In this document: piece by piece, positions 5,337-23,099 of the stretch
Layout of the letters: the number at the start of each line of letters is the position of its first letter
How positions within the stretch are numbered: the stretch's first letter is position 1
Assembly: GCF_001595965.1 (NCBI RefSeq)
Contig: NZ_LOJI01000001.1
Span: 246,178-278,177, forward strand
Source of the DNA: Polynucleobacter yangtzensis
Lineage (GTDB): Bacteria > Pseudomonadota > Gammaproteobacteria > Burkholderiales > Burkholderiaceae
Reading direction: 5' to 3'
DNA length: 32,000 bases
Translations under genes and position numbers: made by a program
Notes under the pieces: generated by a model
Seen by the model: the letters and a program-made list of their open reading frames with translations, nothing else
Told to the model about the DNA's origin: nothing
Databases searched by the model: none

Positions 5337-5430
5337 AAAAACCACCCGAAGGTGGTTTTGGTGTTTCTTGGTGGCCCGGGGCGGAATCGACCAGGACAGA
5401 GGGTGTATGACTCTAGCTCTAGACTACCCG
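5337..5430 (-). repeat. R1: terminator hairpin + tRNA-Phe 3'-end fragment + shared non-tRNA arm
   Basis: AAAACCACCCGAAGGTGGTTTT (5337-5359) followed by TGGTGGCCCGGGGCGGAATCGA (5369-5390). The next stretch, ...GACTCTAGCTCTAGAC, resembles R4. No tRNA 5' half is present. Confidence 0.85.
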
Positions 5431-5516
5431 CCAAAATAGATGACTCAATAAAAACCACTTTAAGTTTTCACCCAAAGTGGTTAAGTCCGTAGGAGCGGAC
5501 AAGCCGAAAATAATAA

Positions 5517-5837
5517 TTATTTTTTTCTTAAAAAAGCTGGAATATAGACTTCATCGTTTTGAGCATTGGTTGCTCTTATCCCAGAATGCTGTCTCCTGAA
5601 ATCCTCTAATTCAACCTCTAATGCCTTGGCATAAATCTGGGCATTAGTTAAAGTGCTCTCGGGTGCCTGCTTAAATCCCAACAGCTCACCATTTTCTATC
5701 CGAACAATTTCTTGAATTGCCAATCCGCAAGAGCCCGCTACTACGGGCAAGGTTAAGCTACGCATCTCTCTAGCCTCGCGAAGACGCTTACCCAACTGCC
5801 TAAAAGATTGAATTTCCAACAAAGTCATACAGCCCAC
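5517..5837 (-). CDS. Helix-turn-helix (XRE/Cro-C1-like) domain protein
   Basis: RLREAREMRSLTLPVVAGSCGLAIQEIVRIENGE is an HTH-like segment. The start may instead be the internal Met at 5828. Confidence 0.5.
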   Translation of the reverse strand: MGCMTLLEIQSFRQLGKRLREAREMRSLTLPVVAGSCGLAIQEIVRIENGELLGFKQAPESTLTNAQIYAKALEVELEDFRRQHSGIRATNAQNDEVYIPAFLRKK

Positions 5838-5950
5838 AACTTTAATAAATTAGGGCTTTATGTTCTCTCTGTAGCCTAGTCGGGTCAATTAGCCTTAGGG
5901 CGAATACGAAACCCATTACAAGTCACAGCCAATCCCATAAACTCTCGCGG

Positions 5951-7378
5951 ATGACACCTTTTACGATTCAAACCATTTTTTTGTTTTATAGCGCTCTGAG
6001 TTTTTTATCAGCGGCTCTTATTGGCGCATTATTTTGGAAGCGAAAAGATCGCTCAGCCAAACTGTGGCTTTGGGGCTGCTTGCTGACATCAATTGCCACC
6101 GCAATAACAGCTCATCGAAATAACATTCCACTAACCATCAGTTATAGCTTGATGGTTAGTTTTGAAGCCCTATCCATTCTCCTGTTTAGTGAATCATTAA
6201 AGCGTTTAGCCGTCAGTCAAGCAGAAGTAAAGCTTAGCTTACTTACCTTTATCATCCCCAGCACTCTTTTTCTTGTGATTGAATTTGCTAGGCAAATAGG
6301 CGGCGGAGAAATAACTCCAGCTATATCAGCACTGACAATGTCAACATTTGCTATCGCAAATGTATTTTGTCTTTATCAAACAGTACAAGTAAAAAAAGAA
6401 TTTGAAAATGAAATATTTTTTAATTTTTTGGGTATTGTTTTTGGAGTAGTAATCGCCCTGTATCTCGTAAGAATTTTTATCATTGCGAGCGGCTACAGTA
6501 GTCATTCATTTGACATTCAGACTTTAAATGTCATCACTTGGTTTGGACTGCTTTTATTTGGCGCTATCAGAAACCTTGCTTATATTGTTCTCAGGCTCCA
6601 TATGGGATTTACTGAACATACACGCTTAAATAGTATGAACCTACGACTCTCTGATGTTTTAGATGAACGCAATGAGATGATTCTTTCCTTACAAAAACTA
6701 AATAGATCGGCATCGATTAATGCCTTAGCCTCCACTATTTCACATGAGATTAATCAGCCTCTAGGCGCATCAAGACTCAATGCGCAATTTGCTGAGATGA
6801 AACTTGAATCAGACCCAGGCAATGTTTCACTTCTTAAAGAGCTTATTAAAAGCATATTAGAGGATATCAATAGAGCCTCAACCATTGTTAAAAATTTATC
6901 CAGATTAAGCTCTAATCAAAATAACAGCGTTGCCCATGTCAATCTTGCTGAATCGATTAATCAAGTTATTGAAATATCTAAAGGTAAGTTACGCTCCTCT
7001 AAAACCACCATTGAGCTTAATTGCGCTAGTCACTATCAAATTAATGTCAATGTGAGCGAGTGGCAGCAAGTATTAATTAACTTAATTAATAATGCGATTG
7101 ATGCTCTTGATGAGGCTGATATAGGTCACAAAAAAATAGAGATTTGCGCCAAACAAGAGGGCAAGACTATAAAAATTTCTATTCAAGACAATGGGCATGG
7201 TATTGCCGCTGGCCAGGAGACCAAAATTTTCGATTTAATGGTTAGCAATAAGGAAGCTGGGTCTGGAATTGGCCTGTGGCTCTCAAAAACTATCATCAAT
7301 AGATTTGGCGGTGAAATTAGTGCCCACAACACAAGTGATGGCGGAGCATGCTTTGTCATTGAACTACCCAAAGCCTAA
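5951..7378 (+). CDS. Membrane sensor histidine kinase
   Basis: About 6 N-terminal TM helices, H-box SHEINQPL, N-box NLINNAIDAL, G1 DNGHGI and G2 GSGIGL. Confidence 0.85.
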   Translation: MTPFTIQTIFLFYSALSFLSAALIGALFWKRKDRSAKLWLWGCLLTSIATAITAHRNNIPLTISYSLMVSFEALSILLFSESLKRLAVSQAEVKLSLLTFIIPSTLFLVIEFARQIGGGEITPAISALTMSTFAIANVFCLYQTVQVKKEFENEIFFNFLGIVFGVVIALYLVRIFIIASGYSSHSFDIQTLNVITWFGLLLFGAIRNLAYIVLRLHMGFTEHTRLNSMNLRLSDVLDERNEMILSLQKLNRSASINALASTISHEINQPLGASRLNAQFAEMKLESDPGNVSLLKELIKSILEDINRASTIVKNLSRLSSNQNNSVAHVNLAESINQVIEISKGKLRSSKTTIELNCASHYQINVNVSEWQQVLINLINNAIDALDEADIGHKKIEICAKQEGKTIKISIQDNGHGIAAGQETKIFDLMVSNKEAGSGIGLWLSKTIINRFGGEISAHNTSDGGACFVIELPKA

Positions 7379-7399
7379 GATGTCGTTTTAAACGACATC
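7379..7399. repeat. Perfect 21-bp palindrome GATGTCGTTT-T-AAACGACATC
   Basis: It starts 1 nt after the kinase stop codon and belongs to the TTTWAAA-centred palindrome family. Confidence 0.9.
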
Positions 7400-7421
7400 T
7401 AAACGTACCGCATAAACGAAA

Positions 7422-7495
7422 AAAACCACCCGAAGGTGGTTTTGGTGTTCTTGGTGGCCGGGGGCGGAATCGAACCGGGGCCGAGATGCTTAGAC
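7422..7495 (-). repeat. R2: terminator hairpin + tRNA-Phe 3'-end fragment
   Basis: Hairpin at 7422-7443 and TGGTGGCCGGGGGCGGAATCGAACC at 7452-7476, with 1 mismatch and 1 deletion relative to the consensus, followed by GGGGCCGAGATGCTTAGAC. Confidence 0.85.
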
Positions 7496-8014
7496 AAGTT
7501 GTTTTGTTAACAACACCAGCTTAAGGCCACTGATCTTAGGATTTCCAACGCCAGCATCTGCTGGATAGTCTGAGCTTACTTGCGTGGGCTCGTAGCCCCT
7601 ACGCAAATAAAAATCAAATAACTCTTTACGCTCTGAAATAACAAATAAATTAACCTCTGAAGACTCATATTGATTTTCGGCATACTCTTCTGCGAGCTGA
7701 AGTATTTCTTTGCCCAAGCCAAGATTTTGATATGACGGCTTAACTGTCAGCATGGCGATATAGCTTGCCCCAGCCTCTTCGTTGATATTCACGCAGGCAA
7801 CAATCTCACCTTTGTTTAGGCCGAGCAATATTGTCGACCCATCCCCATCAAGCAGATCAGCAAGTTGCTGTGTGTTGATTCTGTCGCCCTCTATAAGCCC
7901 TGACTCATGAGTCCAGCCGGTCTCAGGGCCGTTGGGACGATACGAGTTATTTATTAAGCCCACCAGCTCTGGTACGTCCCTTGCTGTGGCAATACGATAT
8001 TCGTCAATATTCAT
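7490..8014 (-). CDS. GNAT family N-acetyltransferase
   Basis: Carries the acetyl-CoA motif KPSYQNLGLGKEIL. I call the start at Met45 of the track ORF (MNIDEYRIATARDV). The upstream 44 codons of ORF 7490-8146 merely translate the tRNA fragment and terminator repeat. Confidence 0.8.
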   Translation of the reverse strand: MNIDEYRIATARDVPELVGLINNSYRPNGPETGWTHESGLIEGDRINTQQLADLLDGDGSTILLGLNKGEIVACVNINEEAGASYIAMLTVKPSYQNLGLGKEILQLAEEYAENQYESSEVNLFVISERKELFDFYLRRGYEPTQVSSDYPADAGVGNPKISGLKLVLLTKQLV

Positions 8015-8034
8015 GACGATAGTTTCACCCAAAT

Positions 8035-8115
8035 ATGAAAAAACCACCCGAAGGTGGTTTTGGTGTTTCTTGGTGGCCCGGGGCGGAATCGAACCACCGA
8101 CACAAGGATTTTCAA
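8035..8115 (-). repeat. R3: 81-bp perfect direct repeat of the tRNA-Phe 3' half (anticodon loop to CCA) plus terminator
   Basis: Identical base for base to 24944-25024. It covers tRNA positions ~32-76, the 9-nt spacer and the UUCG hairpin. The sequence past 8115 diverges and forms no cloverleaf. Confidence 0.9.
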
Positions 8116-8175
8116 GCATCCTCCGATTGACCGCTTCGCCAAGCATTTCAAGTGGTTATGCCAACCGAGACAGAT

Positions 8176-8238
8176 TGTGCGCAAAAAATGCTGAGCGTTT
8201 TCAGAAACTTACCGTAGCGTGTTGAAACTGTGCGCAAA
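8176..8238 (+). repeat. Two direct copies of TGTGCGCAAA (8176-8185, 8229-8238)
   Basis: A 10-mer repeated 53 bp apart, just inside the island end next to R3. This position fits arm-type recombinase binding sites, which is inference. Confidence 0.4.
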
Positions 8239-8335
8239 CCCAAATACCAATATGTAGCGGTGACTGACGTAAGGAGTACCAATAAATTAACTACACAAAT
8301 GCGCTAAATCTCGGTTCATGTATCAGTCAAAAATT

Positions 8336-8453
8336 GGTTCGACTCCTGCTCATGCCACCCAATTTTGGTTCGAATCCTAGTAGTGGTACCGAACAAAGTT
8401 TGGTTCTCAGCCATGCCACCAAACCTTTAGTTCGAATCCTGTGCCTGCAGCCA
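8336..8453 (+). repeat. Tandem cluster of four tRNA 3'-end-like fragments (T-loop + T-stem 3' strand + acceptor 3' strand + CCA-like end)
   Basis: The four units are GGTTCGACTCCTGCTCATGCCACCCA (8336-8361), GGTTCGAATCCTAGTAGTGGTACC (8367-8390), GGTTCTCAGCCATGCCACCA (8402-8421) and GTTCGAATCCTGTGCCTGCAGCCA (8430-8453). None has a matching 5' half. The units alternate A-B-A'-B', like a diverged ~64-nt duplication. Confidence 0.7.
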
Positions 8454-8469
8454 ACCATTGGTACTTGGA

Positions 8470-8488
8470 ATGTCGTTTTAAACGACAT
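8470..8488. repeat. Perfect 19-bp palindrome ATGTCGTTT-T-AAACGACAT
   Basis: Same family as 7379, 21842 and the others. It lies 17 nt after the tRNA-like cluster and upstream of the DUF3800 gene. Confidence 0.9.
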
Positions 8489-8564
8489 ACAAATACCTTA
8501 CTTTAATCTACTAAATTCTGTAAACTTTTCTGATTAATTAAAATCTTTTAAATCCATTTCTACT

Positions 8565-9284
8565 TTGTCAAATACAACCACTTCGCCACCTACGCATTAC
8601 AAAATATTTTGCGATGAAAGTTGTCATCTCCTAAGTGACAGCTCAAACATAATGGTATTTGGAGCGATTAAATGTGACGCAGATCAAGTGGCAAACGCCA
8701 TAAAGCAAATAAAAAGCTTGCGTGTCGTTCATAATTATCACACTGAAATTAAGTGGACTAAATTACATACCAAACATTTGCCGTTTTATAAAGCTCTCAT
8801 TAACTTATTTTTTGATTGTCATTTTTTAAAATTTAAAGCGACGGTTGTTCTTGATAAAAATCTACTAGATCACGAGAAATATAACAATGGATCTCACGCT
8901 GATTTTTATTACAAAATGGCGTACTACTCTTTAAGAGATTTTTTATCTACGCCAAATACTACATATCAAATTTATTTTGACTATGTAGATACACAAGGAA
9001 ACAATAAGGCCTCGCGTTTAAGAGATATTTTAATTAACAGGATGCATGGAAATCTTGAACTTTCAACTCAAGTCATAAGATCCCACGAATCGAACTTAAT
9101 TCAACTTTGCGATCTCTTGATTGGGGCGATTGGCTATGTCAATAGAAATGATCTAGCTCATTTAAGCAGTATAAAAAATCAAATTATTGAACACTTAAAA
9201 GTAAAAAGCCATAGAAGCTTAAATATTGCTTCGGCACCTTGGGAAGAAAAATTTAATCTTTTCCTTTTTAGCCCAAGAAAATAA
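8565..9284 (+). CDS. DUF3800-like protein
   Basis: N-terminal YKIFCDESCH (the DES motif) and C-terminal SNLIQLCDLLIGAIGY (the QxxD motif), as I recall for DUF3800. The gene is very AT-rich, and the TTG start with no clear RBS leaves the start uncertain. Confidence 0.6.
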   Translation: MSNTTTSPPTHYKIFCDESCHLLSDSSNIMVFGAIKCDADQVANAIKQIKSLRVVHNYHTEIKWTKLHTKHLPFYKALINLFFDCHFLKFKATVVLDKNLLDHEKYNNGSHADFYYKMAYYSLRDFLSTPNTTYQIYFDYVDTQGNNKASRLRDILINRMHGNLELSTQVIRSHESNLIQLCDLLIGAIGYVNRNDLAHLSSIKNQIIEHLKVKSHRSLNIASAPWEEKFNLFLFSPRK

Positions 9285-9285
9285 G

Positions 9286-9798
9286 ATGCTTCCTTCTATT
9301 ATCAATACAAGTGGCATTGATGCTACAAAGCTTTTTGATCATCTTTATAGATTTTTTCATCAAGATTTTGTCTGCAATAGGACATACCTGAATCAAACAA
9401 TTTACATAGATCCACAATCTAAACAACTAGAGGATGGCAAAGAAAAAACTTTTTGGCACCTCACGACAAAAAAGGATCAGTTAACCAAGATAAGGCTTTA
9501 CGATCCAAGACGTGCAGAGCGCCTCAATTGGGTAAAGGTAATCATTGAAAACCATTCGGCTCCATTAGTTTCATATTTTTATCATCAAGAAAATAATGCT
9601 AAAAAAGATATAAGACTATATCTCTGGGCAGAAAACCATGATTTTGTAGTCATCCTTCAAAAGCTCGGTAGATCCAGTTCAATTCTTGTAACAAGCTTTT
9701 ATATAGATCATCCCCATAAAAAGGTTGATTACAAAAAAAGACTTCATGCTTATCGCAATGGAACCAATCCAGCACTTATGAATGTTGATTGGTTTTAA
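9286..9798 (+). CDS. Hypothetical protein, translationally coupled partner of the DUF3800 gene
   Basis: The ATG lies 1 nt after the upstream stop (MLPSIINTSG...). The C-terminal ...DFVVILQKLGRSSSILVTSFYIDHP is reminiscent of small RelE/barnase-type toxin folds, a weak impression only. Confidence 0.55.
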   Translation: MLPSIINTSGIDATKLFDHLYRFFHQDFVCNRTYLNQTIYIDPQSKQLEDGKEKTFWHLTTKKDQLTKIRLYDPRRAERLNWVKVIIENHSAPLVSYFYHQENNAKKDIRLYLWAENHDFVVILQKLGRSSSILVTSFYIDHPHKKVDYKKRLHAYRNGTNPALMNVDWF

Positions 9799-9801
9799 AA
9801 A

Positions 9802-9824
9802 AAATCCGCCATGGAGGCGGATTT
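9802..9824 (+). terminator. Intrinsic terminator after the two-gene module
   Basis: AAATCCGCC-atgg-AGGCGGATTT, starting 4 nt after the stop codon. Confidence 0.7.
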
Positions 9825-10107
9825 AAGAATTTGGTCGCCTATTATGGACCGGGCGATACGGTCACCTCTTTCTACCAATTGGTAGGTGAGCGAAGTGATT
9901 TTGCAACATACAGCTCAAGATTACAAATCTAAATACCCTAATACAGTGAAAATACAACATCTATAATGCTGTAACTCATTGATTAAAATGAATATTTTTA
10001 ACTGCATCAAATTATTTACCCACTCGATGTATGGGTAAATAAACAACTCCCACACCCAAATAAATGAATTCCTGAAACTAAAATTGCTAATAACGGCAAA
10101 TTTTAGA

Positions 10108-10446
10108 ATGAAATCATTACCCAAAGAACTTAAAACTACTTCCGTTGATTCCAAGCTACCCACACAGGCTAGATTTGAGCAAAGCTTGCGAGATTCTATT
10201 GAAGGTCAGGAATCCATATTAAGCATTGGCTATTTGCAGTATGTTGCTCAATATCAATCTCATAACCCCTTTAGTCATTCACGCATCACCTACAAAGTAA
10301 TCCATAGAAATACAGGATGTTCTGTGCTCATTAAATTAACTAGGGTTTTAAATACTGGCTCAGGGCTACGCAAACGCCAGAGAATCAATAGAACTGCAAA
10401 GCGAATAGCAGTGAAATGGATGCCAAGACTCAAGACGAGGTATTGA
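10108..10446 (+). CDS. Hypothetical protein (doubtful)
   Basis: ORF-track entry 10084-10446 with an internal ATG at 10108. The C-terminus is basic, there is no RBS and I recognised no motif. Confidence 0.25.
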   Translation: MKSLPKELKTTSVDSKLPTQARFEQSLRDSIEGQESILSIGYLQYVAQYQSHNPFSHSRITYKVIHRNTGCSVLIKLTRVLNTGSGLRKRQRINRTAKRIAVKWMPRLKTRY

Positions 10447-10526
10447 TTTACGCATTACCTGTCAGCCAGATAATCTGTCAAACTCTAAAAAGAGTAATCA
10501 CCAGATCAAACCGCGATTTTGAATCA

Positions 10527-10922
10527 TTAGAGCGGTTTGGGCGTTTCGCCCCTTAAATAGTCCCTAAACATTTTTAACTCTTGCGGCGATTTAGTAGTAA
10601 TAGTGGGCCCTGTTGTAGCGGGTGACTTAGGTTGTGAAGGTGCAATCGTTTTAGCTTGAGCAACTGGCTTAGCTACTTTTTGCTGTACAGCTTGTGCTGG
10701 CCTAGTTACTGGAGCAGGCATAGCTCTTTGAAGCAAACTCACCGCCTTGGGTTTAGGTATCTTTGGGGCTTTGGGGGTCTTGGCTTTGGGCTTACTGGCT
10801 TGAGCCGCCTTCTGTTTTGCCTGTGTACTAGCTTGTTGGCTAATGGCACTCCAGGTGTTATTCATAATGATTCGCAATAATCCTAGCTGATCTTCTGCAT
10901 TGGCAATCTCATACATTCTCAT
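10527..10922 (-). CDS. Hypothetical protein with a Lys/Pro/Ala-rich low-complexity region
   Basis: Strong AGGAGA RBS. A ~30-aa N-terminal segment is followed by QAKQKAAQASKPKAKTPKAPKIPKPKA...KVAKPVAQAK repeats. Confidence 0.65.
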   Translation of the reverse strand: MRMYEIANAEDQLGLLRIIMNNTWSAISQQASTQAKQKAAQASKPKAKTPKAPKIPKPKAVSLLQRAMPAPVTRPAQAVQQKVAKPVAQAKTIAPSQPKSPATTGPTITTKSPQELKMFRDYLRGETPKPL

Positions 10923-10977
10923 GGCTTTCTCCTTTCCTTATATTTATCGGATCGTCTAGGATTTAGACGATCCCCAC

Positions 10978-11127
10978 CTAAACCTCTGTTGGCAAATGCA
11001 CCACATTGTTTGCACCATACTGCCCTTGCAATAAGAAATAAGCGGCTTGACTGTTATCGGCAACTACTTGAGTTTGCACTACCCAGCCCTGCGGCTGTAT
11101 ACGTACGTAGGCTACATATGTTTTCAT
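10978..11127 (-). CDS. Small hypothetical protein (49 aa)
   Basis: My own translation gives MKTYVAYVRIQPQGWVVQTQVVADNSQAAYFLLQGQYGANNVVHLPTEV. A 10-bp-stem hairpin, GGATCGTCTA-ggatt-TAGACGATCC (10949-10973), follows it. Confidence 0.35.
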   Translation of the reverse strand: MKTYVAYVRIQPQGWVVQTQVVADNSQAAYFLLQGQYGANNVVHLPTEV

Positions 11128-11183
11128 TTAATCCATCCATAGAAAAAGAGCTAACACTAGGATTAGCATTAGCTCGTGGTTAC

Positions 11184-11621
11184 TCACTTACCAAACCCAG
11201 CACGTACAGCGCCACTGGCTTGCTCTATCTGGGTATCTAACTCCCCCGCTTCTACAGCGCCTTTGATAATCTCTAAGGCTTTGATAAGCTCATCTGCAGT
11301 GGCAACTTCTACGGCTGTTTTGCCTTTTGCAAACTCAATCACGCGGCTTCCATAGCGAACGTTTAGGCAAACCTTGCCGTCACTAGACACAAACCACCAC
11401 TGACGTACACGCTTTTGATGCTCTACGGTTTTGCGAGAGCCGTCATAGTCTTTAACTGATTTAAATTTCTTAACAGTAAAAGTATTGCCTTCGCGTTGGG
11501 CCTTCGCAAGTTGGATCTGCTCCCATACTTTTGTAGAGAGCTTATTGCGTCGCTGCAAAATGGGTGGGATAGACGTTGGCTTTTTAGAGTTAACCATTTT
11601 CAAACTGTTTAATGTGCTCAT
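11184..11621 (-). CDS. Hypothetical island protein
   Basis: 145 aa with an AGGAGA RBS 7 nt upstream. It is transcribed divergently from 11767-12150. I recognised no catalytic motif. Confidence 0.6.
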   Translation of the reverse strand: MSTLNSLKMVNSKKPTSIPPILQRRNKLSTKVWEQIQLAKAQREGNTFTVKKFKSVKDYDGSRKTVEHQKRVRQWWFVSSDGKVCLNVRYGSRVIEFAKGKTAVEVATADELIKALEIIKGAVEAGELDTQIEQASGAVRAGFGK

Positions 11622-11675
11622 TTCATTTCTCCTTTGTAGTTAATGGGCACACTTAATTTATGGTCAGAGTTTTTG

Positions 11676-11687
11676 GTTGGACAACCT
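11676..11687 (-). promoter_or_regulatory. Shared promoter/operator motif AGGTTGTCCAAC (-35 region) upstream of 11184-11621
   Basis: Minus strand reads GGTTGTCCAAC-N..-ATAAAT, that is TTGTCC, a 17-nt spacer and ATAAAT, about 55 nt before the ATG. The same 12-mer recurs upstream of the integrase. Confidence 0.5.
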
Positions 11688-11766
11688 CTTTTTGCCAATA
11701 TCTGCCAGAACCAAAGGATTTAAGCCAGATCTGTTCTTCTTTTATTAGGTTTTGCTAAATACTTTT

Positions 11767-12150
11767 ATGAACTACAAGAAGAAACGATTAACTGAGGCAC
11801 AGTTTCAAATTAACAATCGTCAAAAGTACGATTCGAAAGTTACTAACAGCCTTCTAAAAGCTAATGGACTTAATCCGCAGACTTTTTCAACAATGCCTCT
11901 TGAATTAGTGCAAGCCCGCATCGTTGCAGTAGAACTACTCAAAAATTACTCACAATTTTTAACAAAACATCAAACTAAGGCACTCAATAAATTCAAAAGC
12001 AAAACCGCAGATAAAAAGAAATGCAATCAACTTAGCCCTACTTTGGCTTATCCGATACTCAATCTAGCAACCAAAATCAAAAGACAGGCTCATAAACAAG
12101 AACTGCAAGCAAGGCAAACTATCCAGGAACTAAGGTACAACCAACCTTAA
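11767..12150 (+). CDS. Hypothetical basic protein
   Basis: Track ORF 11752-12150. The first ATG is at 11767 (MNYKKKRLTEAQ...). The protein is Lys/Gln-rich. Confidence 0.5.
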   Translation: MNYKKKRLTEAQFQINNRQKYDSKVTNSLLKANGLNPQTFSTMPLELVQARIVAVELLKNYSQFLTKHQTKALNKFKSKTADKKKCNQLSPTLAYPILNLATKIKRQAHKQELQARQTIQELRYNQP

Positions 12151-12486
12151 CAAACAGGTACAAACGCGGGTTGTAATACGTCGGCTAATGAGCCCGCACT
12201 TGGCATAACTGCTCTAAAGGTTATGCAATACAAGTAGGCCGCAAGATTCCTAGATTTTCTAGGTTTGAAGTTTTAATACATCTGTCTTCAATAAATCTTT
12301 TTAGAGTCGTGTTGCTGAGGAACTCATCGTACCAATCTACACGTAGCGGCGGCTTTAGTACTTTCATAGTGCTATAGCCGTCGTTTGACTAAAGAATCTA
12401 TCAACCAATCAGCAATCAAAAGAAAGAAGATATGTGTGAGCGGAAGCGAAACACAGGACGAATGCAGTTCGTCCAATAAGGCTTGA

Positions 12487-12846
12487 TTAGATATTTAAAT
12501 TTTGTTCAAGTTGAGTATAAAAATCTGGCATTTCTTCTTTAGTAATTTCCCAACCAGAGCAGTTATTTCTGACTGAATCCCACAACCCCCAACCACCAAA
12601 AGCAACTACTGCTTGTCCAACCAGACCCATTACAGAGTCAATGATTTCCTGAGCCGTTGCTGTTGAGCCATCTTCATACGCACAGAGAACTGCAATGGGA
12701 ACCCCTTCATTGATAGCCATTGACTTTCCAAGATATCCTTTTGAGTCTTGTGACCGAATTCGCTCATCTAAAGCTACTGAGAAATTTTTTAATTCAAGCT
12801 GAATGGGGAAATTTTCAAATTCAAATATGGCGGCAACAGTTTTCAT
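12487..12846 (-). CDS. Hypothetical protein
   Basis: 119 aa, acidic and AT-rich, with no RBS and no recognisable motif. A hairpin, GGACGAA-tgcag-TTCGTCC, lies downstream at 12455-12473. Confidence 0.5.
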   Translation of the reverse strand: MKTVAAIFEFENFPIQLELKNFSVALDERIRSQDSKGYLGKSMAINEGVPIAVLCAYEDGSTATAQEIIDSVMGLVGQAVVAFGGWGLWDSVRNNCSGWEITKEEMPDFYTQLEQNLNI

Positions 12847-12859
12847 TTAAATTTTTATG

Positions 12860-12880
12860 AAATGTAATTGAATTGCATTT
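12860..12880. repeat. Imperfect palindrome AAATGTAATTGAATTGCATTT containing the AAATGTAAT half-site
   Basis: One of four AAATGTAAT/ATTACATTT occurrences in the 390-bp intergenic region upstream of the short recombinase. Confidence 0.7.
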
Positions 12881-12992
12881 TACCTGACTGGGTATAGACG
12901 CAAAATCACCACCCTGAATCTATAAGTACTTCATATAAATTTTTCGCAGCTCTATTTTTAAAGGGCACAGGACCCATTCGGGTATCAAATTA

Positions 12993-13064
12993 TTCGTTTA
13001 AGCGGTGATCTAGCTCACCCGCATACATGGGTAGCTGAGGGCTAAATATATATGCTTAAACGAA
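12993..13064. repeat. Long imperfect hairpin closed by an 11-bp perfect inverted repeat TTCGTTTAAGC / GCTTAAACGAA
   Basis: The arms lie at 12993-13003 and 13054-13064. There is inner pairing between AGCTCACCC and GGGTAGCT. Confidence 0.6.
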
Positions 13065-13091
13065 GGATTTAGCTGTGGCATTTAAGCCACG

Positions 13092-13123
13092 AAATGTAAT
13101 AGAAGTATGAAACTATTACATTT
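13092..13123. repeat. Inverted repeat AAATGTAATAG-N10-CTATTACATTT
   Basis: Perfect 11-bp arms. Confidence 0.8.
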
Positions 13124-13215
13124 AGAGCTAAGTCATTGAAATTGAAAAGATCTTTGTTTTGCCATTTTCGGTTGCTCAAACCAAACATAAGAAAACATAC
13201 TGTAGCTGCTTATTT

Positions 13216-13224
13216 ATTACATTT
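13216..13224. repeat. Half-site ATTACATTT, 12 nt upstream of the recombinase ATG
   Basis: It is the inverted partner of AAATGTAAT at 12860-12868, and the outer pair spans 365 bp. Confidence 0.6.
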
Positions 13225-13236
13225 TGGGAGCTACAT

Positions 13237-13803
13237 ATGTCACAAGCAAAAACACTAAACACAACAGAACTACGCAGAGTTCTTGATCACATCGCTACAC
13301 GCAAGCATTCTGCCCGCAATCGCTGCGCCTTACTTTTAACCCATTACGCAGGAATGCGAGTGGGGGAAGTTGCAGCTCTACGTATTTGCGACGTTTTAAA
13401 CGACAGCGGAACCATTAAAGATGAAATCCGCCTAAGGCCAGAACAAACTAAGGGCAAATACGCTAGAACTGTATATATCAATGCCCGTATGCAAAAAGAA
13501 ATTGCTCAGTACGTTAAATGGATACGAGTTACCGATACCAATAAGCCTTTGTTCTATACCCAAAAACGAGCTGGCTTCTCAGCCAATACGCTTACACAGT
13601 ACTTTCACTTTCTATATAGACGTGCTGGACTTGAAGGTTGCAGCTCACACTCAGGCAGAAGATCATTCTTAACTTCCTTGGCAAACAAGGGCACAGCTAT
13701 ACATATATTGAAGTCCCTAGCGGGCCATCGCAACATTAGTACTACCGCTGGGTATCTATACTCCAGCCCAGACCAGATGAAAGCGGCAGTGGAATTAGTC
13801 TAA
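13237..13803 (+). CDS. Short tyrosine recombinase (catalytic domain only), FimB/FimE-like
   Basis: 188 aa from the ATG with a GGGAG RBS. Motifs are HSARNRCALLLTHYAGMRVGEVAALRICDV (Arg I), HSGRRSF (H-x-x-R) and GHRNISTTAGYLY (His/Tyr). Both size and N-terminal motif layout resemble E. coli FimB/FimE. Confidence 0.8.
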   Translation: MSQAKTLNTTELRRVLDHIATRKHSARNRCALLLTHYAGMRVGEVAALRICDVLNDSGTIKDEIRLRPEQTKGKYARTVYINARMQKEIAQYVKWIRVTDTNKPLFYTQKRAGFSANTLTQYFHFLYRRAGLEGCSSHSGRRSFLTSLANKGTAIHILKSLAGHRNISTTAGYLYSSPDQMKAAVELV

Positions 13804-14574
13804 TAAATCTTCAGCAGGCTCAAAGTAGCCTGCATCTGGAAACCTTCCAACAGTTGCATTGGCTATCAACTTTTTCGTAGTGTCTAGAACATAGTCAAGA
13901 CGATCTAAAAGATTCTTCATTTCATCTGGAGTTACTTTTTCATCAGGCTTTAGGTGCCCCAATAAGCCATATTTTTGCGCTAGCTTATATGCAACAAAAC
14001 CTTGCTTTTGTGATTCTGACTGATATTCAAGATAGATTTTTAAATCGCGATTGATTCGATCGAACCCAAATTTCAGATTGTCTTTAAAAAGTCTTGTAGG
14101 GGCGGTACTTTCATCCCATCGATTGTATTTCTTTAGATTTTGATACTCTTCTTGAGCTCGCAAAATCTTATCGAATTGTTCTTTTAACTTATCGAGCGAC
14201 AAATTAAGCGGAATCTCCAATACCAGAGTTGATGGCTTAAGTTCCTTATTCGATCGTTTGATTTTGTAATCAAGTGAAACGGGCTTAATTGTTCTATACG
14301 GAACTTTTTCTTTAAAAATCCTGTGCCCTCTAATCTTCCACCATTCTTTAAAGTTGAGTTGGCTCAAGTCCCCGAACCTTCTATAGGTATGAGCCATAGC
14401 CACATTTCTAAATCTTCTGGTTGACTGTATTTCAGCGTACCAATGGGAGGCCTTCAGCACATTAAACCAAGCTTCATACATTGACCCCTCAGCTTTAGAG
14501 GCGGCAACCTCGACATCAAACCCCCATACATCGTTCTCGACGGGGAAACCTTTGTAGAAATTTAAATAGTCCAT
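13795..14574 (-). CDS. Hypothetical protein
   Basis: 259 aa. It overlaps the recombinase 3' end convergently by 9 nt. No motif recognised. Confidence 0.55.
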   Translation of the reverse strand: MDYLNFYKGFPVENDVWGFDVEVAASKAEGSMYEAWFNVLKASHWYAEIQSTRRFRNVAMAHTYRRFGDLSQLNFKEWWKIRGHRIFKEKVPYRTIKPVSLDYKIKRSNKELKPSTLVLEIPLNLSLDKLKEQFDKILRAQEEYQNLKKYNRWDESTAPTRLFKDNLKFGFDRINRDLKIYLEYQSESQKQGFVAYKLAQKYGLLGHLKPDEKVTPDEMKNLLDRLDYVLDTTKKLIANATVGRFPDAGYFEPAEDLLD

Positions 14575-14710
14575 TTATTTGTTCGGAAAAGTTGATAGTT
14601 CAGGTTTTTCGAATTTTCAGACGCTAAAACGCTCTCTAGAATTTTTTACAAGTAACGCAATCCTCTTAAAAACTTTATCAACCTGCGTTACGAAAAAGAA
14701 AGGTAACAAC

Positions 14711-15520
14711 ATGGAAATTCTAGCAAACGAAGCGGTAGAAGTAAAAGTGTCATCAGCTACGCTAGTAGCCAATGATGACAAAACATTTGGCAATGTCATG
14801 GCAAAAGTGTCAGCAACACCTATGCATTACTCAGTTGCCGACATCAAAGCAATGGAGGCGGCTCGTATTCACTGGGAGCAGGGGTCTTTGCGTAAAAGCA
14901 ATGAGGAGCTGTATCTAGTTTTACAAGATTGCAAAGCATTCTGCAAAGACTTGCCTTCTGCTGAAGCTAAGCAGCGTTCAGACTCATTAGCAAAGTTCTA
15001 CAAAGAGCGTGGCTGGCGTTACAACAAGGAAACACCCATTGAGACTCGCGTACTTCGCGCTGTCTTTGGGATGGAAAACCGTCGTCGCATCAGCAGCTAC
15101 TCCTTAGTGCTGCGCGAATCCAAAAAGCAGCGTGTTGGCGTTTCAAACTTAGCAGCTTGGATTGACGAGATGGGTGGCGTACAAGAAATTCGCCTTTCTC
15201 AAAGCAAGACTTTCATCTCGCCCGCTGAGAAGGCGCAGATCATGAAGGAACGTCTTGCTTCTCGTGGCTTCTTTATTGGCTTTGCTAAGTCCGAGCTGTT
15301 ATCGCATGTTGCTGACGCTGAGCACATGGGAGATGACTGCGTAATGCTGGGCAATCAACAACCAGATGGTTCATTTGGAGTTTACGCAGTACTTCGCTCT
15401 TCAGGTGTTTTGACAGCAGCTTATGTAGCCGCGTATGCAAAAGCTGAGGAAATCGAAGCTCAAGCGAAAAAAGAAATTGAGGCCGCTAACGATGCGGATG
15501 GAAAGCCTGTAGCGGCTTAA
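14711..15520 (+). CDS. Hypothetical protein with a coiled-coil C-terminus
   Basis: I call the start at Met45 of track ORF 14579 (MEILANEAVE...), preceded by AAAGG. This is the first gene of a four-gene same-strand cluster. Confidence 0.55.
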   Translation: MEILANEAVEVKVSSATLVANDDKTFGNVMAKVSATPMHYSVADIKAMEAARIHWEQGSLRKSNEELYLVLQDCKAFCKDLPSAEAKQRSDSLAKFYKERGWRYNKETPIETRVLRAVFGMENRRRISSYSLVLRESKKQRVGVSNLAAWIDEMGGVQEIRLSQSKTFISPAEKAQIMKERLASRGFFIGFAKSELLSHVADAEHMGDDCVMLGNQQPDGSFGVYAVLRSSGVLTAAYVAAYAKAEEIEAQAKKEIEAANDADGKPVAA

Positions 15521-15574
15521 CGAACCTGGTGGCAACTGCTACAGGTTGCCACCAACCATCACTGAGGAAAAGAC

Positions 15575-16246
15575 ATGTTTAATCAAGATGAAATTAGCCC
15601 TAAAACTCCCGATGACTTCATTTACAGCAATGAAGAATCACGCCTGCGCATTAAGGATGTTGTGACTGGTGCACAACCTTTGCCATATGCAGGCAAGAGC
15701 GGCGTATTGTTGTACGGCATTTATGGCACAGGTAAAACCACGCTTGCCAATATGCTTCCCAATGCAATTGAAAAAGGCACAACTGGACATGTTCAGGCAT
15801 TGCCTGAGTCATACATCGGCTGTCGCCAAGGCTTAAATGGCGTTCAGGTTTCGCAAACAATTGACAAGATTCTTTCGACGCAATCATTAAATGCCAGCGG
15901 CAAGCATTACATCATTTTGGATGAGGTGGATGTTCTGACTAAACAGGCACAAGAAAGTCTTAAGTCATCTCTGAATACAACACGTGGCGTATTTGTATTA
16001 ACCACCAATAGCGTATCTAAGCTAGATAAAGGCCTACTTGATCGCTGCATTTTAGTTGAGATGAATGCTGCTGATCCAGAAACCTATCTGCCAATAGCTC
16101 ACAAGGTTGTCGCAGCTCACGATGTCGTTTTAAACGACGAAGAGTTGATTCCGACTATCAAAGGGGCAAATGGATCGCTACGTAATGTCATTAACAACGT
16201 AGCTCGTCAAGCACGTCGAGCCAAATCTAATCAAGCTGCTAACTAA
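15575..16246 (+). CDS. AAA+ ATPase, clamp-loader (RFC/gp44/DnaX)-like
   Basis: Walker A GIYGTGKTT, Walker B YIILDEVD, sensor-1 VLTTN, and LLDRCILVEM in place of the SRC box. GAGGAAAA RBS. Confidence 0.75.
   Translation: MFNQDEISPKTPDDFIYSNEESRLRIKDVVTGAQPLPYAGKSGVLLYGIYGTGKTTLANMLPNAIEKGTTGHVQALPESYIGCRQGLNGVQVSQTIDKILSTQSLNASGKHYIILDEVDVLTKQAQESLKSSLNTTRGVFVLTTNSVSKLDKGLLDRCILVEMNAADPETYLPIAHKVVAAHDVVLNDEELIPTIKGANGSLRNVINNVARQARRAKSNQAAN
16121..16138. repeat. Palindrome-family copy GATGTCGTTTTAAACGAC inside the AAA+ CDS
   Basis: 7-bp arms GTCGTTT/AAACGAC, encoding HDVVLND. Confidence 0.7.
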
Positions 16247-16256
16247 GGAGAAAATC

Positions 16257-16553
16257 ATGCCAGCACCACACACACGCAAAAATGCTATTGCAGCAGAACA
16301 CACTGAAGTTACTAATGCTTATGCGATTCGCGTTACAAATGCAAAGTATCGCTCTGCAAATATTAATGGAGTGATCGAGCTTGCTAATGGCAAGAACTCT
16401 TTTCATGTTTTGGGTCAGGAACTTTGTGCTAAAGCAAAGCTGGCATGGTTTGACATGGAATTTAAAAAAGGGTTTCGCTCAATCAATTTGAGTGGCGCTC
16501 AAGTACAGATTTTGCCTAATTACACAGGCGAAGTTATTTCTAAACTTGCTTAA
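16257..16553 (+). CDS. Hypothetical protein
   Basis: 98 aa with a GGAGAAAA RBS, 10 nt after the AAA+ stop codon. Confidence 0.55.
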   Translation: MPAPHTRKNAIAAEHTEVTNAYAIRVTNAKYRSANINGVIELANGKNSFHVLGQELCAKAKLAWFDMEFKKGFRSINLSGAQVQILPNYTGEVISKLA

Positions 16554-16562
16554 GGGGCGACT

Positions 16563-17162
16563 ATGCGAGAGCTTATTGGAAATGAAAAAGAAGTTAAGTT
16601 TATTTTTTTTCGTCACGGCATTGATTACACACTACCCACGCCGAGCAATGTAAAGAAATTTTTAGGAACCAAATCTGCTGGTTTTTATAAAGCCGATGGT
16701 CATTATGCGGGAAATATTCATCAATTCAGTCATGTCTTAGATATAGTACATAGTGGTCTTAGCCTTAATTCAGTCATAGGTCATTGGCACCATGGACCGT
16801 GTTATATGAATACCGTATTACGTTTAGGTGGCGATGCCAAACGTAATGTTATGTTTGATCTAACACATAGTGAAGTTATTGTTGATCATTTAACTTTAAC
16901 TAAAGAATCTTTGGATCAACTTTGGGACATTTGCCAAGAAACATACAATACTGTTAACTCTATAAAGCAAGCAAAGAGCTTAATCAAACAAACTCAGGAT
17001 CTTGAAAAAACTGTAAACAAAAATAAGTTAATTGATCCATCATTGAAAGATTCTACGGAGCTACTTAAATCTGAGTGCTTCTTAAATTTTGCAAATCCAA
17101 CCTTAAAATTTTTAGAAGAAAAAATTAAGGGTTGGTACAAGTCTGCTAAATGGCTTGAATAG
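16563..17162 (+). CDS. Hypothetical protein (AT-rich)
   Basis: 199 aa with a His-rich patch IGHWHHGPC. It starts 9 nt after the preceding stop codon. Confidence 0.5.
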   Translation: MRELIGNEKEVKFIFFRHGIDYTLPTPSNVKKFLGTKSAGFYKADGHYAGNIHQFSHVLDIVHSGLSLNSVIGHWHHGPCYMNTVLRLGGDAKRNVMFDLTHSEVIVDHLTLTKESLDQLWDICQETYNTVNSIKQAKSLIKQTQDLEKTVNKNKLIDPSLKDSTELLKSECFLNFANPTLKFLEEKIKGWYKSAKWLE

Positions 17163-17178
17163 ATTGTTCTCTAGCACA

Positions 17179-18453
17179 TTAGGCCAATTGCTCAGCAGCC
17201 ATCGTAGGGGTTAGCTTGGAATAGTGTCGCTCAATCATGGCGGCGCTATTTCCCATTTGTTTGGCTAGAGTATGAATATCAGTCTTATTTTCAAGTAACT
17301 CCAAAGTGGCGTAAGTATGGCGCAATGAATACAAAGTACGCATCTGCCCATCCTGACTTAACCCCAAACCAGTATCTCTCATTAGTCTTTTAAACGCTCC
17401 GTCAATTCGTGCTGGCTGGTGTCCATCAGCAAATACAAAAATACGATTAGGCGCACGTGATTCAAATAATCTGTCAAATGAAATATCTTTAACGGCTAGC
17501 TGTCTACTATGTAATCGCTTGAGAGCATCTATAGCTTTATGTTTAGCAATTAACCAACGGCCACCTGTTTTGCCACTAACCCATATACGTAGATATTTTT
17601 TATCTCCTTGCGTATGCCATTCAATATTGTTCCAGCAGATATTCAATGCTTCGGTGCCATGCCGCATGCCTGTGTAAAACAAAATCTCCACATAGTCTCT
17701 TAATAATGGGCGGGTTAATTGCTCTATCTCCAATCTGCCATGATTAATCCAATCTTTCATGTACCCCAACAAATAATCCATCTCTTCTCGGCTAAATGCT
17801 GGGCGAGTTTTGCCTTTGTGCCCTCGTGTTGTTAGTTTTGGGATTGCCACCCTCTCACTAATCCAACCTTTATTAACTGCTGTCTGCTGTAACTTTGTCC
17901 AAGCACTGGCAAAGTTCATTAAGGTGCTGGACTTGGGTACTAGCCGCATCTGCCTATTACGCCAAATCTCAAACTCATGAATGTCTGTATAAGTTATTTC
18001 TTCTAGTCGCTTATCCTGAAAGTAAGGTAAAAAGTATTTCTCAATACACGTGATGTAACTTAGATAAACACTCTTTCCAATTCCTTCACCCAAATCACGC
18101 CGCATTTCATAAAGTGTGGCGTGCGCTATTTCTGCGAATGTGGGTGCTTTTTGCGCAAGCCCTAGACGCTGGCGAAATCTAGCTTCATCATATAAATCAC
18201 AGGCAACTCTGACAGCATGCTCAATTGATGCTTGCTTGGTTGAGACTCTGTCCCATGTGTTGTCATGTCGTTTAAAACGACATTGCCAGAGTGGGCTATT
18301 TGGCCTGCGAAAGAGAACTACGTCGCCATCACGCAGATAAAGCTCTGTGGGCTCTGCGTATTTGAGCTGACTTAGGGCTGTGGGTTGGAAATCTTGCTGG
18401 GGTGAGGAGATTACCTCTAGGTGGCTTTCGGGTACTTTAATTACCTTAGTCAC
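17179..18453 (-). CDS. Tyrosine-type site-specific integrase
   Basis: 424 aa. The C-terminal catalytic region has TGMRHGTEAL (Arg), LRHTYATLEL (H-x-x-R context) and IERHYSKL (Tyr). Confidence 0.9.
   Translation of the reverse strand: MTKVIKVPESHLEVISSPQQDFQPTALSQLKYAEPTELYLRDGDVVLFRRPNSPLWQCRFKRHDNTWDRVSTKQASIEHAVRVACDLYDEARFRQRLGLAQKAPTFAEIAHATLYEMRRDLGEGIGKSVYLSYITCIEKYFLPYFQDKRLEEITYTDIHEFEIWRNRQMRLVPKSSTLMNFASAWTKLQQTAVNKGWISERVAIPKLTTRGHKGKTRPAFSREEMDYLLGYMKDWINHGRLEIEQLTRPLLRDYVEILFYTGMRHGTEALNICWNNIEWHTQGDKKYLRIWVSGKTGGRWLIAKHKAIDALKRLHSRQLAVKDISFDRLFESRAPNRIFVFADGHQPARIDGAFKRLMRDTGLGLSQDGQMRTLYSLRHTYATLELLENKTDIHTLAKQMGNSAAMIERHYSKLTPTMAAEQLA
18265..18283. repeat. Perfect 19-bp palindrome ATGTCGTTT-A-AAACGACAT inside the integrase CDS
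   Basis: It is the exact reverse-orientation match of the intergenic copies and overlaps codons RFKRHD. Confidence 0.9.
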
Positions 18454-18504
18454 TTTGTGGGCAGATTACCGTTGTCATACCGCTATTTTATTTTCAGACT
18501 TAGA

Positions 18505-18516
18505 GTTGGACAACCT
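18505..18516 (-). promoter_or_regulatory. Shared promoter/operator motif AGGTTGTCCAAC upstream of the integrase
   Basis: Minus strand reads TTGTCC, a 17-nt spacer, then TAAAAT, about 55 nt before the integrase ATG. Confidence 0.5.
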
Positions 18517-18522
18517 GAACAA

Positions 18523-18547
18523 GAAACGTACTTTTAAAGGACGTTTC
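18523..18547. repeat. 25-bp near-palindrome GAAACGTACTTTTAAAGGACGTTTC
   Basis: Two arm mismatches, centred on TTTTAAA like the main family. It sits just upstream of the putative integrase promoter. Confidence 0.7.
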
Positions 18548-18711
18548 TATGGCTAAGCGCAGTCTTGATTTAACCTTTTATTCGACCTTTTCTGCATAAG
18601 TCTCTCTATAAACAGGCTTTAAGACTTTCACTAAATTATCAACATCCATTGCGGCTAAATTAGATCTGCCACCAATAATGTTAACTTCTTTAATGAAGTT
18701 TCTAAAACTAC

Positions 18712-19887
18712 TCAACGAAACATTGGGTATAACACTAGACCAAATAAAGCGGCCGCAATTACCACCACCGGCTCAGTGAGTTTCTTGTATTTCCAAAGCA
18801 ATGCGGTCGTCACAATAGCCAATACAGCAGTCGGAATATCCACAATAGAGCGCTGACCAATCACAATGACTGAACCAGTAATAGCACCAACTGCGGCGGC
18901 TGTTACTCCGTCAATAAAAGCAACCAGACTCGGATTCTTGCCATATTTCTTAAAGTAAGGTGCTGGAATAATAGTGAACAAGTAGCAAGGAATAAAAGTG
19001 GCCAATGCCGCAACACTGGCACCAGTAAAGCCAGCAATGAGATATCCAATAAAGCCAACAGTGATGACTACAGGACCTGGCGTAATCATTGCAACAGCCA
19101 CCGCATCGACAAACTGTTTCTCAGTTAGCCATTGATGCTCTACAACTACACCGCCATATAAGAATGGCACGATGGCTAATCCCGAACCAAATACAAAGGC
19201 GCCTGCTTTTGTAAAGAAGATGGCAATTTGACTTAGAAGTGAAAGATCAAAGCTACCCCAAATACTCGTAAATGCTGGTACTTGAGTAACGGCAATGGAG
19301 TTCAGTCCACCGCTCTTAAACCACTTTGGTGGCGCCTTAACAAATAAAGTAATAAGGCCTGCAGTAAAGACGAGTGAGGCAATTTCAGATTGAGTGATGA
19401 CGGTACTTACCACCATCACTACAAAGATTGCCCACAATAACTTATCTTTACCAATCGTTTTCTTAGTGAGTTTTTGGGCGCTAATCGCAATGATGCCAAT
19501 CACGGCGGCACCCACGCCATAAAAAACTGCCTGCATCCAAGCTAAATCTCCATAAGCCACATATGCCCATCCTAGAGCAACCACCATAAAAAATGAGGGG
19601 ATCACAAATGCAATACCTACTAAAGTTGCTCCAAGAATTTTGTAATGCACATACCCAAGATATATGGCTAATTGTGCAGCCATTGGACCAGGGGCCATCT
19701 GAGCTAAGGCCATTCCTTCTCTATAATCAGCTTCAGTTATCCAGCCATACTTCTCCACTAAATCTCGATTCATATAACCTACCAAAGCGACCGGTCCTCC
19801 AAAACCCCAAGTACCCAACTTGAGCATATAGATAACCAATTGCCAAAGTGAATAACTTGGTTTGAGTTGTTCTATTGAATTGCTCAT
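18712..19887 (-). CDS. chrA: Chromate ion transporter (CHR family)
   Basis: 391 aa with ~10-12 TM segments and the duplicated CHR halves: FGGPVALVGYM... and GSGLAIVPFL...ITPGPVVIT. Confidence 0.85.
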   Translation of the reverse strand: MSNSIEQLKPSYSLWQLVIYMLKLGTWGFGGPVALVGYMNRDLVEKYGWITEADYREGMALAQMAPGPMAAQLAIYLGYVHYKILGATLVGIAFVIPSFFMVVALGWAYVAYGDLAWMQAVFYGVGAAVIGIIAISAQKLTKKTIGKDKLLWAIFVVMVVSTVITQSEIASLVFTAGLITLFVKAPPKWFKSGGLNSIAVTQVPAFTSIWGSFDLSLLSQIAIFFTKAGAFVFGSGLAIVPFLYGGVVVEHQWLTEKQFVDAVAVAMITPGPVVITVGFIGYLIAGFTGASVAALATFIPCYLFTIIPAPYFKKYGKNPSLVAFIDGVTAAAVGAITGSVIVIGQRSIVDIPTAVLAIVTTALLWKYKKLTEPVVVIAAALFGLVLYPMFR

Positions 19888-20822
19888 TTCACACCCTCTT
19901 TCGTAAATGCGCCTACCAAGGCATCAAATACACCGCTGGCTTTGTCGAGCAATTGATCATCGGTTTTAGTGGATACCTTCAACCCCGCAATGATTGCCTC
20001 AACACCTTGCGCTTCAGCTGGTTGAATACCACCTACATCCAAAGCATGAATCACAGCGCCCAAACGCTTAATAGCCGCATCATCAATTCCAAAACTTTGG
20101 GCAATCACTTCAAATGTCACTAGGCCATCTATATGGGTAAAGGTAGCGCCATCAAAATCAAATCCCAACGCGGTCTTAGGGCACTCCTTTATTGATTTAA
20201 GCCAGATAAATGATGCCTTTGGGTCGATGTACTTACGGATAAGCCAAGCACTAGCGAGCCTATCAATCCAAAGTCTAGAGCGGGTTGCCCACCTCTTGCC
20301 TTGATAGTTCTTGATATTGAGCTTGGTAATTTTTCGCTGAATGGCATGCGGCTCACCTGGAGATTGAATGGCAGCAATCGCAAGCTCCAATTCTTCTAAA
20401 ACACGATTAGCTTGTCTGCTTGATTCACCAACATAAAAATCAATTGCTACTAATGCCTCATATTGCTTACGAAGTTTTCGCGCTTCTTTAATTTGTTCAA
20501 GTATTAATTTGGGTTTAAGTTTTTTAATCAGAGCCTTAGATTGCTGAATTAATTGGGCATAGTCTTCTGCTCGATCAAACAACGATTTAAAACTTTCGCT
20601 TGTCGGCTGTTCAATAGTCACTACATAAGCTGAACCACCCGCACTTAATACTTGCTCTGAAGCAAGCTCGAATGTTGTTTTGTGTTGCTTATCATTTGGC
20701 AAAATATATACACCATCTCGCAGAACAGCGGCGCCTGAAGCCTTTAAAGAACGCCAAATTCGCATCCGCTCCGTAGGGCTGGAAGTAGGCAAAGATAGGA
20801 TGAGGGCATAGAACTTGTTCAT
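19884..20822 (-). CDS. chrB: ChrB-like chromate resistance protein
   Basis: The N-terminal LSLPTSSPTERMRIWRSLKASGAAVLRDGVYILPN is typical of ChrB. A 4-nt overlap couples it to chrA. Confidence 0.75.
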   Translation of the reverse strand: MNKFYALILSLPTSSPTERMRIWRSLKASGAAVLRDGVYILPNDKQHKTTFELASEQVLSAGGSAYVVTIEQPTSESFKSLFDRAEDYAQLIQQSKALIKKLKPKLILEQIKEARKLRKQYEALVAIDFYVGESSRQANRVLEELELAIAAIQSPGEPHAIQRKITKLNIKNYQGKRWATRSRLWIDRLASAWLIRKYIDPKASFIWLKSIKECPKTALGFDFDGATFTHIDGLVTFEVIAQSFGIDDAAIKRLGAVIHALDVGGIQPAEAQGVEAIIAGLKVSTKTDDQLLDKASGVFDALVGAFTKEGVK

Positions 20823-20860
20823 GTAATATATGCTACATTAATGTATTAAATACTACAAGT

Positions 20861-20891
20861 ATTGATTTGTCGTTTAAAACGACAAATCAAT
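20861..20891. repeat. Perfect 31-bp palindrome ATTGATTTGTCGTTT-A-AAACGACAAATCAAT
   Basis: The longest family member, lying between the divergent chrB and TonB-like genes. Confidence 0.9.
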
Positions 20892-21010
20892 GACTCATCA
20901 ATGGCAGCCTATTCTGATTAAGACGCTTAAACGGCACCTAGCTAGCCATGACATGATGTATGGACAACAAGCAAACCTATAACGCAATCGATACAGTCTA
21001 AGCCTCTAAA

Positions 21011-23098: not shown

Positions 23099-23099
23099 A

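Follow-up and report, generated by a model that had tools for sequence, protein, structure and literature searches.

Tandem tRNA 3'-end-like segments in one arm of a genomic island at tRNA-Phe of Polynucleobacter yangtzensis

A genomic island of about 14 kb at the tRNA-Phe gene of Polynucleobacter yangtzensis carries in one of its arms a tandem array of four plus-strand segments (8336 to 8453) with the layout of a tRNA 3' end from the T-loop to CCA. Coordinates are those of the window, the whole stretch of 32,000 nucleotides that was analysed (contig NZ_LOJI01000001.1, positions 246,178 to 278,177). The array may be a stack of drifted copies of a tRNA 3'-end att core, leftover debris of recombination sites that now belongs to the island backbone, and we put the chances of this at about even. 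The layout of the units, their boundary at T51/G52, their position in the island arm and the variation in unit number between islands all point to att-core copies that have been multiplied and have drifted. We infer both such an origin and the absence of a present function. Counted against this explanation are the lack of a partner repeat, the inverted orientation at about 220 bp from the core, and uneven conservation. The array is neither a gene nor part of the DUF3800/PDC-M04 cargo that follows it.

Layout of the array

Eight matches to GGTTCGANTCC with no more than one mismatch are present in the window, compared with 1.0 expected by chance: three plus-strand matches at 8336, 8367 and 8429, and five in the tRNA-Phe gene and its scars, all of these on the minus strand. 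The strict layout GTTCGANTCC-N11-CC, in which the T-loop box is followed by exactly 11 bases, the canonical distance to C74 C75, also has eight matches (0.01 expected), namely the tRNA-Phe gene, four of the scars, and units 1, 2 and 4 only. Fifteen fixed positions of a tRNA 3' end are matched at canonical length in this way. Because units 1, 2 and 4 fit the strict layout, these three have, counted from G52, the exact 25-nt length of tRNA positions 52 to 76. The array of T-loop-to-3'-end units described in the initial annotation is therefore real, but its four units about 30 nt apart are three of exact length and one, unit 3 (8402 to 8421), shortened by about 5 nt, with starts spaced 31, 35 and 27 nt.

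Unit 1 (8336 to 8360), of 25 nt, reads GGTTCGACTCC-TGC-TCATGCC-A-CCC and is flanked by the inverted repeat AAAATTGG/CCAATTTT. Unit 2 (8367 to 8391), also of 25 nt, reads GGTTCGAATCC-TAG-TAGTGGT-A-CCG and has a tail unrelated to those of the other units. The degenerate unit 3 (GGTTCTCAGCCATGCCACCA), with a tail that matches unit 1, lies inside the inverted repeat AAAGTTTGGT/ACCAAACCTT, and unit 4 (8429 to 8453), again of 25 nt, reads AGTTCGAATCC-TGT-GCCTGCA-G-CCA. The CCA-like ends that had been attributed to every unit are in-register CCA in units 3 (ACCA) and 4 (GCCA), but units 1 and 2 end in ACCC and ACCG. A small hairpin can form in each of units 1 to 3.

Pairwise similarity among the units is 69-72%, with the T-loop boxes identical at 12-13 of 14 positions and the tails at 2-5 of 10. 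The A-B-A'-B' pattern formerly proposed, a diverged duplication of about 64 nt, is only approximate because the tail of unit 4 is closer to that of unit 1 (5/10, or 7/10 for the copy of unit 4 in the related island L177, which ends GCCTGCC-A-CCA) than to that of unit 2 (2/10). Tandem Repeats Finder reported no array at the units. Outside the T-loop and CCA, the units match tRNA-Phe at 3-6 of 10 positions, in agreement with the earlier observation that they differ from tRNA-Phe and partly from each other; the observation that the array faces the opposite way to the tRNA-Phe core and scars also holds. On the left, conservation among the units begins between TT and GGTTCGA, that is, at T51/G52, the same start as in the five T-loop-class tRNA-Phe scars in the window.

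Screens for tRNA and other RNA genes

A full tRNA gene on either strand was ruled out, since ARAGORN found no tRNA or tmRNA at the array at the default, 95% or 85% thresholds, and Rfam, with the tRNA model included, gave no match there at the gathering threshold or at E<=10. The positions that would be the 5' strands of T-stems pair at only 2-4 of 5 positions, and the original descriptions of the units as lacking complementary 5' strands and belonging to no tRNA gene are borne out. A structured RNA was also rejected: the segment 8300-8495 folds no better than shuffled sequences on both strands (MFE z -1.0 and -0.9). A small RNA framed by a promoter and a terminator was discarded as well, with no sigma-70-like promoter on either strand between 7900 and 8900 and no terminator called at 8468-8490. 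The hairpin downstream of the array is without a T-run and is a dispersed palindrome, some copies of which are located inside coding sequence. The Rfam models DUF3800-I to XI have no match at the array at the gathering threshold or at E<=5-10. A tRNA-mimic decoy RNA serving the neighbouring defence gene is unlikely.

The island and the tRNA-Phe locus

The window contains a tandem array of elements at tRNA-Phe (24980-25055, minus strand), where copies of the 3' end of the tRNA and its terminator (scars) are found at 5369, 7452, 8071, 21996, 23195 and 24407. Five of the six scars share an upstream arm, CATCCTCGGCCC, and their identity to the tRNA starts at T51/G52. The minus-strand fragment at 8071-8115, which extends from the anticodon loop to CCA and adjoins a copy of the tRNA terminator (8040-8061), is the distal att repeat of the island. 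The island itself (about 8116-21995) encodes a tyrosine integrase of 424 aa (17179-18453) and also carries cargo that includes a small second recombinase and genes for chromate resistance. Its integrase crosses over at the anticodon loop and not at the T-loop. The array is located about 220 bp inside the island, in the arm remote from the integrase, within the conserved terminal 400 bp or so.

Crossover in the T-loop by a tyrosine integrase duplicates the segment from T-loop to CCA. In the explanation favoured here, the 3'-terminal 25 bases of a tRNA gene would have been copied as an att core, and the units would have arisen or multiplied by tandem duplication with unequal or site-specific crossover between their shared T-loop boxes. 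They would have drifted since then, and the island at tRNA-Phe would now carry them as backbone DNA in its non-integrase arm. The suggestion that the units are att cores or scars carried along by the island agrees with their location in the conserved terminal region and with a start in common with five scars, but no intact tRNA gene, 5' tRNA half or direct repeat matching the units was found in the window. Other plus-strand T-loop-like sites in the window are limited to two inside coding sequence.

Displaced tRNA 3'-end fragments reportedly flank genomic islands in tRNA genes, as Reiter 1989, Williams 2002 and the Islander database are said to document. The array is like such fragments in extending from T-loop to CCA at canonical length, in having the boundary of T-loop-class integrases, and in belonging to an integrase-bearing island at a tRNA gene in a window with many true scars. 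It is unlike them in consisting of four copies only about 31 nt apart, in having no adjacent or matching intact tRNA or partner repeat, and in lying inside an island arm, inverted with respect to the island's own att core. At one att site, tandem accretion arrays can be formed by integrative elements and by CIMEs, which are cis-mobilisable elements without an integrase. The tRNA-Phe locus, with six elements in a row of which five are integrase-less single-gene cassettes, resembles such accretion arrays, whereas the units enclose no cargo and are far too close together for usual element boundaries.

The six stacked elements occupy 5369-25055, and the five small cassettes without integrase, mostly of a single gene, encode a lipoprotein, a DUF6268 protein, a metallo-beta-lactamase fold, a GNAT protein and a histidine kinase. 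Each of the five ends with the arm CATCCTCGGCCC and a T-loop-to-terminator copy of tRNA-Phe. The locus illustrates well how serial accretion occurs in nature, here in a freshwater bacterium of high abundance. Beside the distal scar, the arm at 8116-8190 (minus strand) looks like a degenerate 5' half of tRNA-Phe interrupted by an insertion of about 23 nt. The island variants L192 and L195 have an equivalent stretch, and the attP of the island may therefore derive from a copy of the whole tRNA-Phe. At the corresponding site, L182-L190 have a complete tRNA-Phe gene. The arm of L182 contains an inverted fragment of the D and anticodon arms, further tRNA debris in the arms of these islands. A short tyrosine recombinase of about 188-214 aa, consisting of the catalytic domain only, is encoded at 13159-13803 (plus strand); being kept in every island variant examined (L177, L178, L182, L192 and L201), it is probably functional and not a truncated pseudogene.

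Comparison with related islands

The array is identical in 23 of 23 contigs that encode the identical DUF3800 protein. A diverged array of three units, at the same distance from the distal scar as in the window, is found in L177, an island bounded by a tRNA-Phe gene on one side and a distal scar on the other, with an integrase of the same cluster (at least 90% identity) and no DUF3800 gene. The window and L177 are homologous over a stretch that starts at the scar, includes the array and stops with the palindrome at 8469-8488, with no homology past the palindrome; the cargo slot of the window, 8487-10782, corresponds to about 300 nt in L177. The presence of the array in L177 without DUF3800, together with the end of homology at the palindrome, assigns the array to the island backbone and not to the defence cargo. 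The first unit of L177 combines the T-loop of unit 1 (GACTCC) with the tail of unit 2, and the two arrays differ by exactly 31 nt, as expected from unequal crossover between shared boxes. The variation in unit number would thus be a record of unequal crossover at the T-loop boxes.

More distant island variants (L182-L200), reached through the backbone protein DUF6641 (80% and 86% identity), have retained the tRNA-Phe repeat of the anticodon-loop class as well as the palindrome, with unrelated sequence instead of the units. A search with a unit profile over all related island loci found no further copies. These distant variants, which have the scar and the palindrome and do without the units, indicate that the array is lineage-specific and dispensable for the island family.

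A stretch of 67 nt at 8246-8312 is specific to the window and missing from L177. It contains two TACCAATA repeats 32 nt apart that are complementary to ATTGGTA at 8457-8465, just past unit 4. An element boundary at 8330, where the Logan contigs L005 and L008 start, was considered and set aside; population variants upstream explain these contig ends equally well.

Searches beyond the island family

No relatives of the array were found in plasmids, phages or viral contigs, and three patterns for a source tRNA of the units had no match in 2.9 million viral contigs. A metagenome scan for CATGCCACC-N5-12-GTTCGAATCC gave 36 chance matches only. Public genomes were scanned for two T-loop boxes 15-25 nt apart, and the matches listed, which do not include the host genome, are diverse and mostly unrelated: tRNA genes with their own scars, coding repeats, and cyanobacterial short repeats (L071 and L072). 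Among the matches listed are 125 T-loop clusters (L017-L136) of at least two boxes no more than 45 nt apart, and 59 of these 125 overlap a called tRNA gene, with a second copy of that gene's own T-loop-to-3'-end segment 26-36 nt later. The scan suggests that in bacteria and archaea alike, tRNA genes often have a very short att duplication beside them. Orphan stacks are few among the matches listed; L045 and L129 are stacks of two different tRNA-like 3' ends. Remnants of tRNA fragments left by the integration of elements are pervasive (PMC9897764).

The neighbouring DUF3800 genes

Two genes downstream of the array, at 8565-9284 and 9226-9798, match two proteins of the PADLOC candidate system PDC-M04, with Pfam family DUF3800. 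The DUF3800 protein is annotated as 210 aa in many assemblies and as 239 aa in WP_068319945; the TTG start at 8565 is better, because homologues span all 239 aa including the N-terminal IFCDES motif. Six related modules of DUF3800 and its partner (55-61% identity) are present in Deefgea, a Methylococcaceae genome, Pseudomonas syringae and three metagenomes. There the gene pair is kept and directly follows another gene (hsdS, HepT, a helicase, an HTH gene or DUF6538), and there is no T-loop box within 800 nt upstream. The array motif was found in none of 11 related DUF3800 loci. A tie between the array and DUF3800 was ruled out by the six related modules without the array and by the array of L177 without DUF3800.

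Structured RNA motifs, 11 in number and without an assigned function, are associated with DUF3800 genes, and terminators follow several of them (PMC5737381); for this reason the idea of an RNA at the array was worth testing. The array is like the DUF3800-I to XI RNA motifs (Weinberg et al. 2017) in being non-coding, located beside a DUF3800 gene and followed by a hairpin, but unlike them it has neither an Rfam match nor a conserved fold, is not co-inherited with DUF3800, and is present without it. The succession of tandem repeats of about 30 nt, a hairpin and a defence-module gene also recalls type III toxin-antitoxin systems (ToxI-like), from which the array differs in its strongly diverged repeats, the lack of a terminator T-run, and the existence of related modules without repeats.

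The PDC-M04 partner gene and its terminator are followed at 9831-9895 (plus strand) by a non-coding element of about 60 nt (GGTCGCCTATTATGGACCGGGCGATACGGTCACCTCTTTCTACCAATTGGTAGGTGAGCG). The element hardly varies among six loci (the window, L010, L011, L014, L137 and L139) in which the proteins are only 55-61% identical; it has an invariant core, CACCTCTTTCTAC-N4-TGGTAG-N-TGAGC, and a few compensatory changes in its 5' part. It has no match in Rfam. Copies are also present in five IMG/VR viral contigs (L211-L215) with no DUF3800 or partner gene nearby, and the copy in L215 adjoins NinG/NinB-like genes. The element may be a new RNA or DNA site associated with DUF3800/PDC-M04, possibly copied by phage, and it may merit more attention than the array.

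Alternative explanations of the array

The conservation of the boxes above that of the remaining sequence, an unevenness that would not be expected of neutral debris, the higher identity of the array than of the adjoining arm, and the lack of a partner repeat or source tRNA leave room for a working DNA site or for units derived from different tRNAs. Identity to L177 is 90% for the array and about 81% for the adjoining arm (8116 to 8333), and the T-loop boxes of the two islands differ at about 2 of 39 positions (by our own count) as opposed to 26 of 139 in the arm; these contrasts are weak, since the array is represented by only two independent sequence versions.

It is somewhat unlikely that the T-loop boxes are working DNA sites, either an array phased at about 31 bp for a recombination protein in an attP arm, or pseudo-attB sites at which T-loop-targeting cassettes, such as the five without an integrase at this tRNA-Phe, could dock and be carried along by the island. 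The boxes are the slowest-evolving part of the region, the tails that separate them are near random between units, the units are 27-35 bp apart, about three turns of the helix, the unit boundary is that of the T-loop-class scars, and the array lies in an island arm adjoining the point where cargo differs between variants, all of which would fit such a role. However, no copy of the box was found in the other arm or elsewhere in related islands, distant members of the family at the same tRNA-Phe site have no boxes, none of the units contains an inserted cassette, no plus-strand T-loop partner is found to the right of the cargo, and the integrase of the island has its crossover point at the anticodon loop. 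The known arm-type sites of lambda, P2 and HP1 are repeats of 8-11 bp placed close together, and arm-type repeats of attP are near the core and usually in both arms; the repeats of the array are situated 220-340 bp from the core and in one arm only.

The units might instead be the 3' ends of several different tRNA genes, gathered serially by a T-loop-crossing integrase as a record of its past sites, which we consider fairly improbable. A T-loop box and a length of 25 nt in common, with tails that differ (2/10 between units 2 and 4), are as expected from such a history, and the orphan stacks L045 and L129 demonstrate that two different tRNA-like 3' ends can be stacked elsewhere. On the other hand, the spacer flanks (TT before GG, AA after CC) are common to the units, as is the tail TGCC-A-CC to units 1, 3 and 4, and these shared sequences point to one ancestor. 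Unit 2 would imply an acceptor stem with A1-U72 and A73, which is atypical for a bacterial tRNA, and no tRNA in viral contigs matches the units.

Decidedly improbable, and the most unusual reading, is a multi-site docking array of decoy or secondary attB sites made from tRNA 3' ends, where T-loop-targeting, integrase-less cassettes would insert and travel with the island, like an integron cassette platform, or alternatively a mimic RNA working with PDC-M04. If the boxes did capture cassettes in this way, they would be a new route for islands to gain cargo.

Weakest of all, and very improbable, is the proposal that the array is transcribed into an RNA that mimics tRNA ends, whether as decoy or as RNA partner of DUF3800/PDC-M04, comparable to the structured RNAs beside other DUF3800 genes or to repeat-encoded type III antitoxins: the location directly upstream of the DUF3800 gene and before a hairpin, the motifs already known near DUF3800 genes (PMC5737381) and the small hairpins of units 1 to 3 speak for it, but such a decoy, offered in the initial annotation, is not supported in view of the absence of the array upstream of the six related modules, its presence in L177 without DUF3800, the lack of a promoter-like site, ordinary folding, the lack of an Rfam DUF3800 match, a hairpin that has no T-run and recurs in coding sequence, units without T-stem or acceptor partners, and a different conserved element (9831-9895) downstream of the partner gene. 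Read as drifted att-core copies, the array is both a caution and a marker: tRNA-end look-alikes may lie in island arms far from any tRNA gene and may be mistaken for RNA mimics.

Dispersed palindromes

The palindrome AATGTCGTTTTAAACGACAT (8469-8488), where the backbone common to the window and L177 ends, recurs as an identical 20-mer in the other arm of the island (21841-21860) and is the sole sequence that the two arms have in common. Its 15-bp core, the palindrome GTCGTTTWAAACGAC, has nine copies in the window (0 expected), all of them in the island region 7382-24290, at 7382, 8472, 13390, 16124, 18267, 20869, 21844, 23101 and 24276. The 15-bp palindrome is often located 50-140 nt past a tRNA-Phe scar, and its possible roles include those of operator, recombination hotspot and module boundary. 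Related islands contain no more than five copies each.
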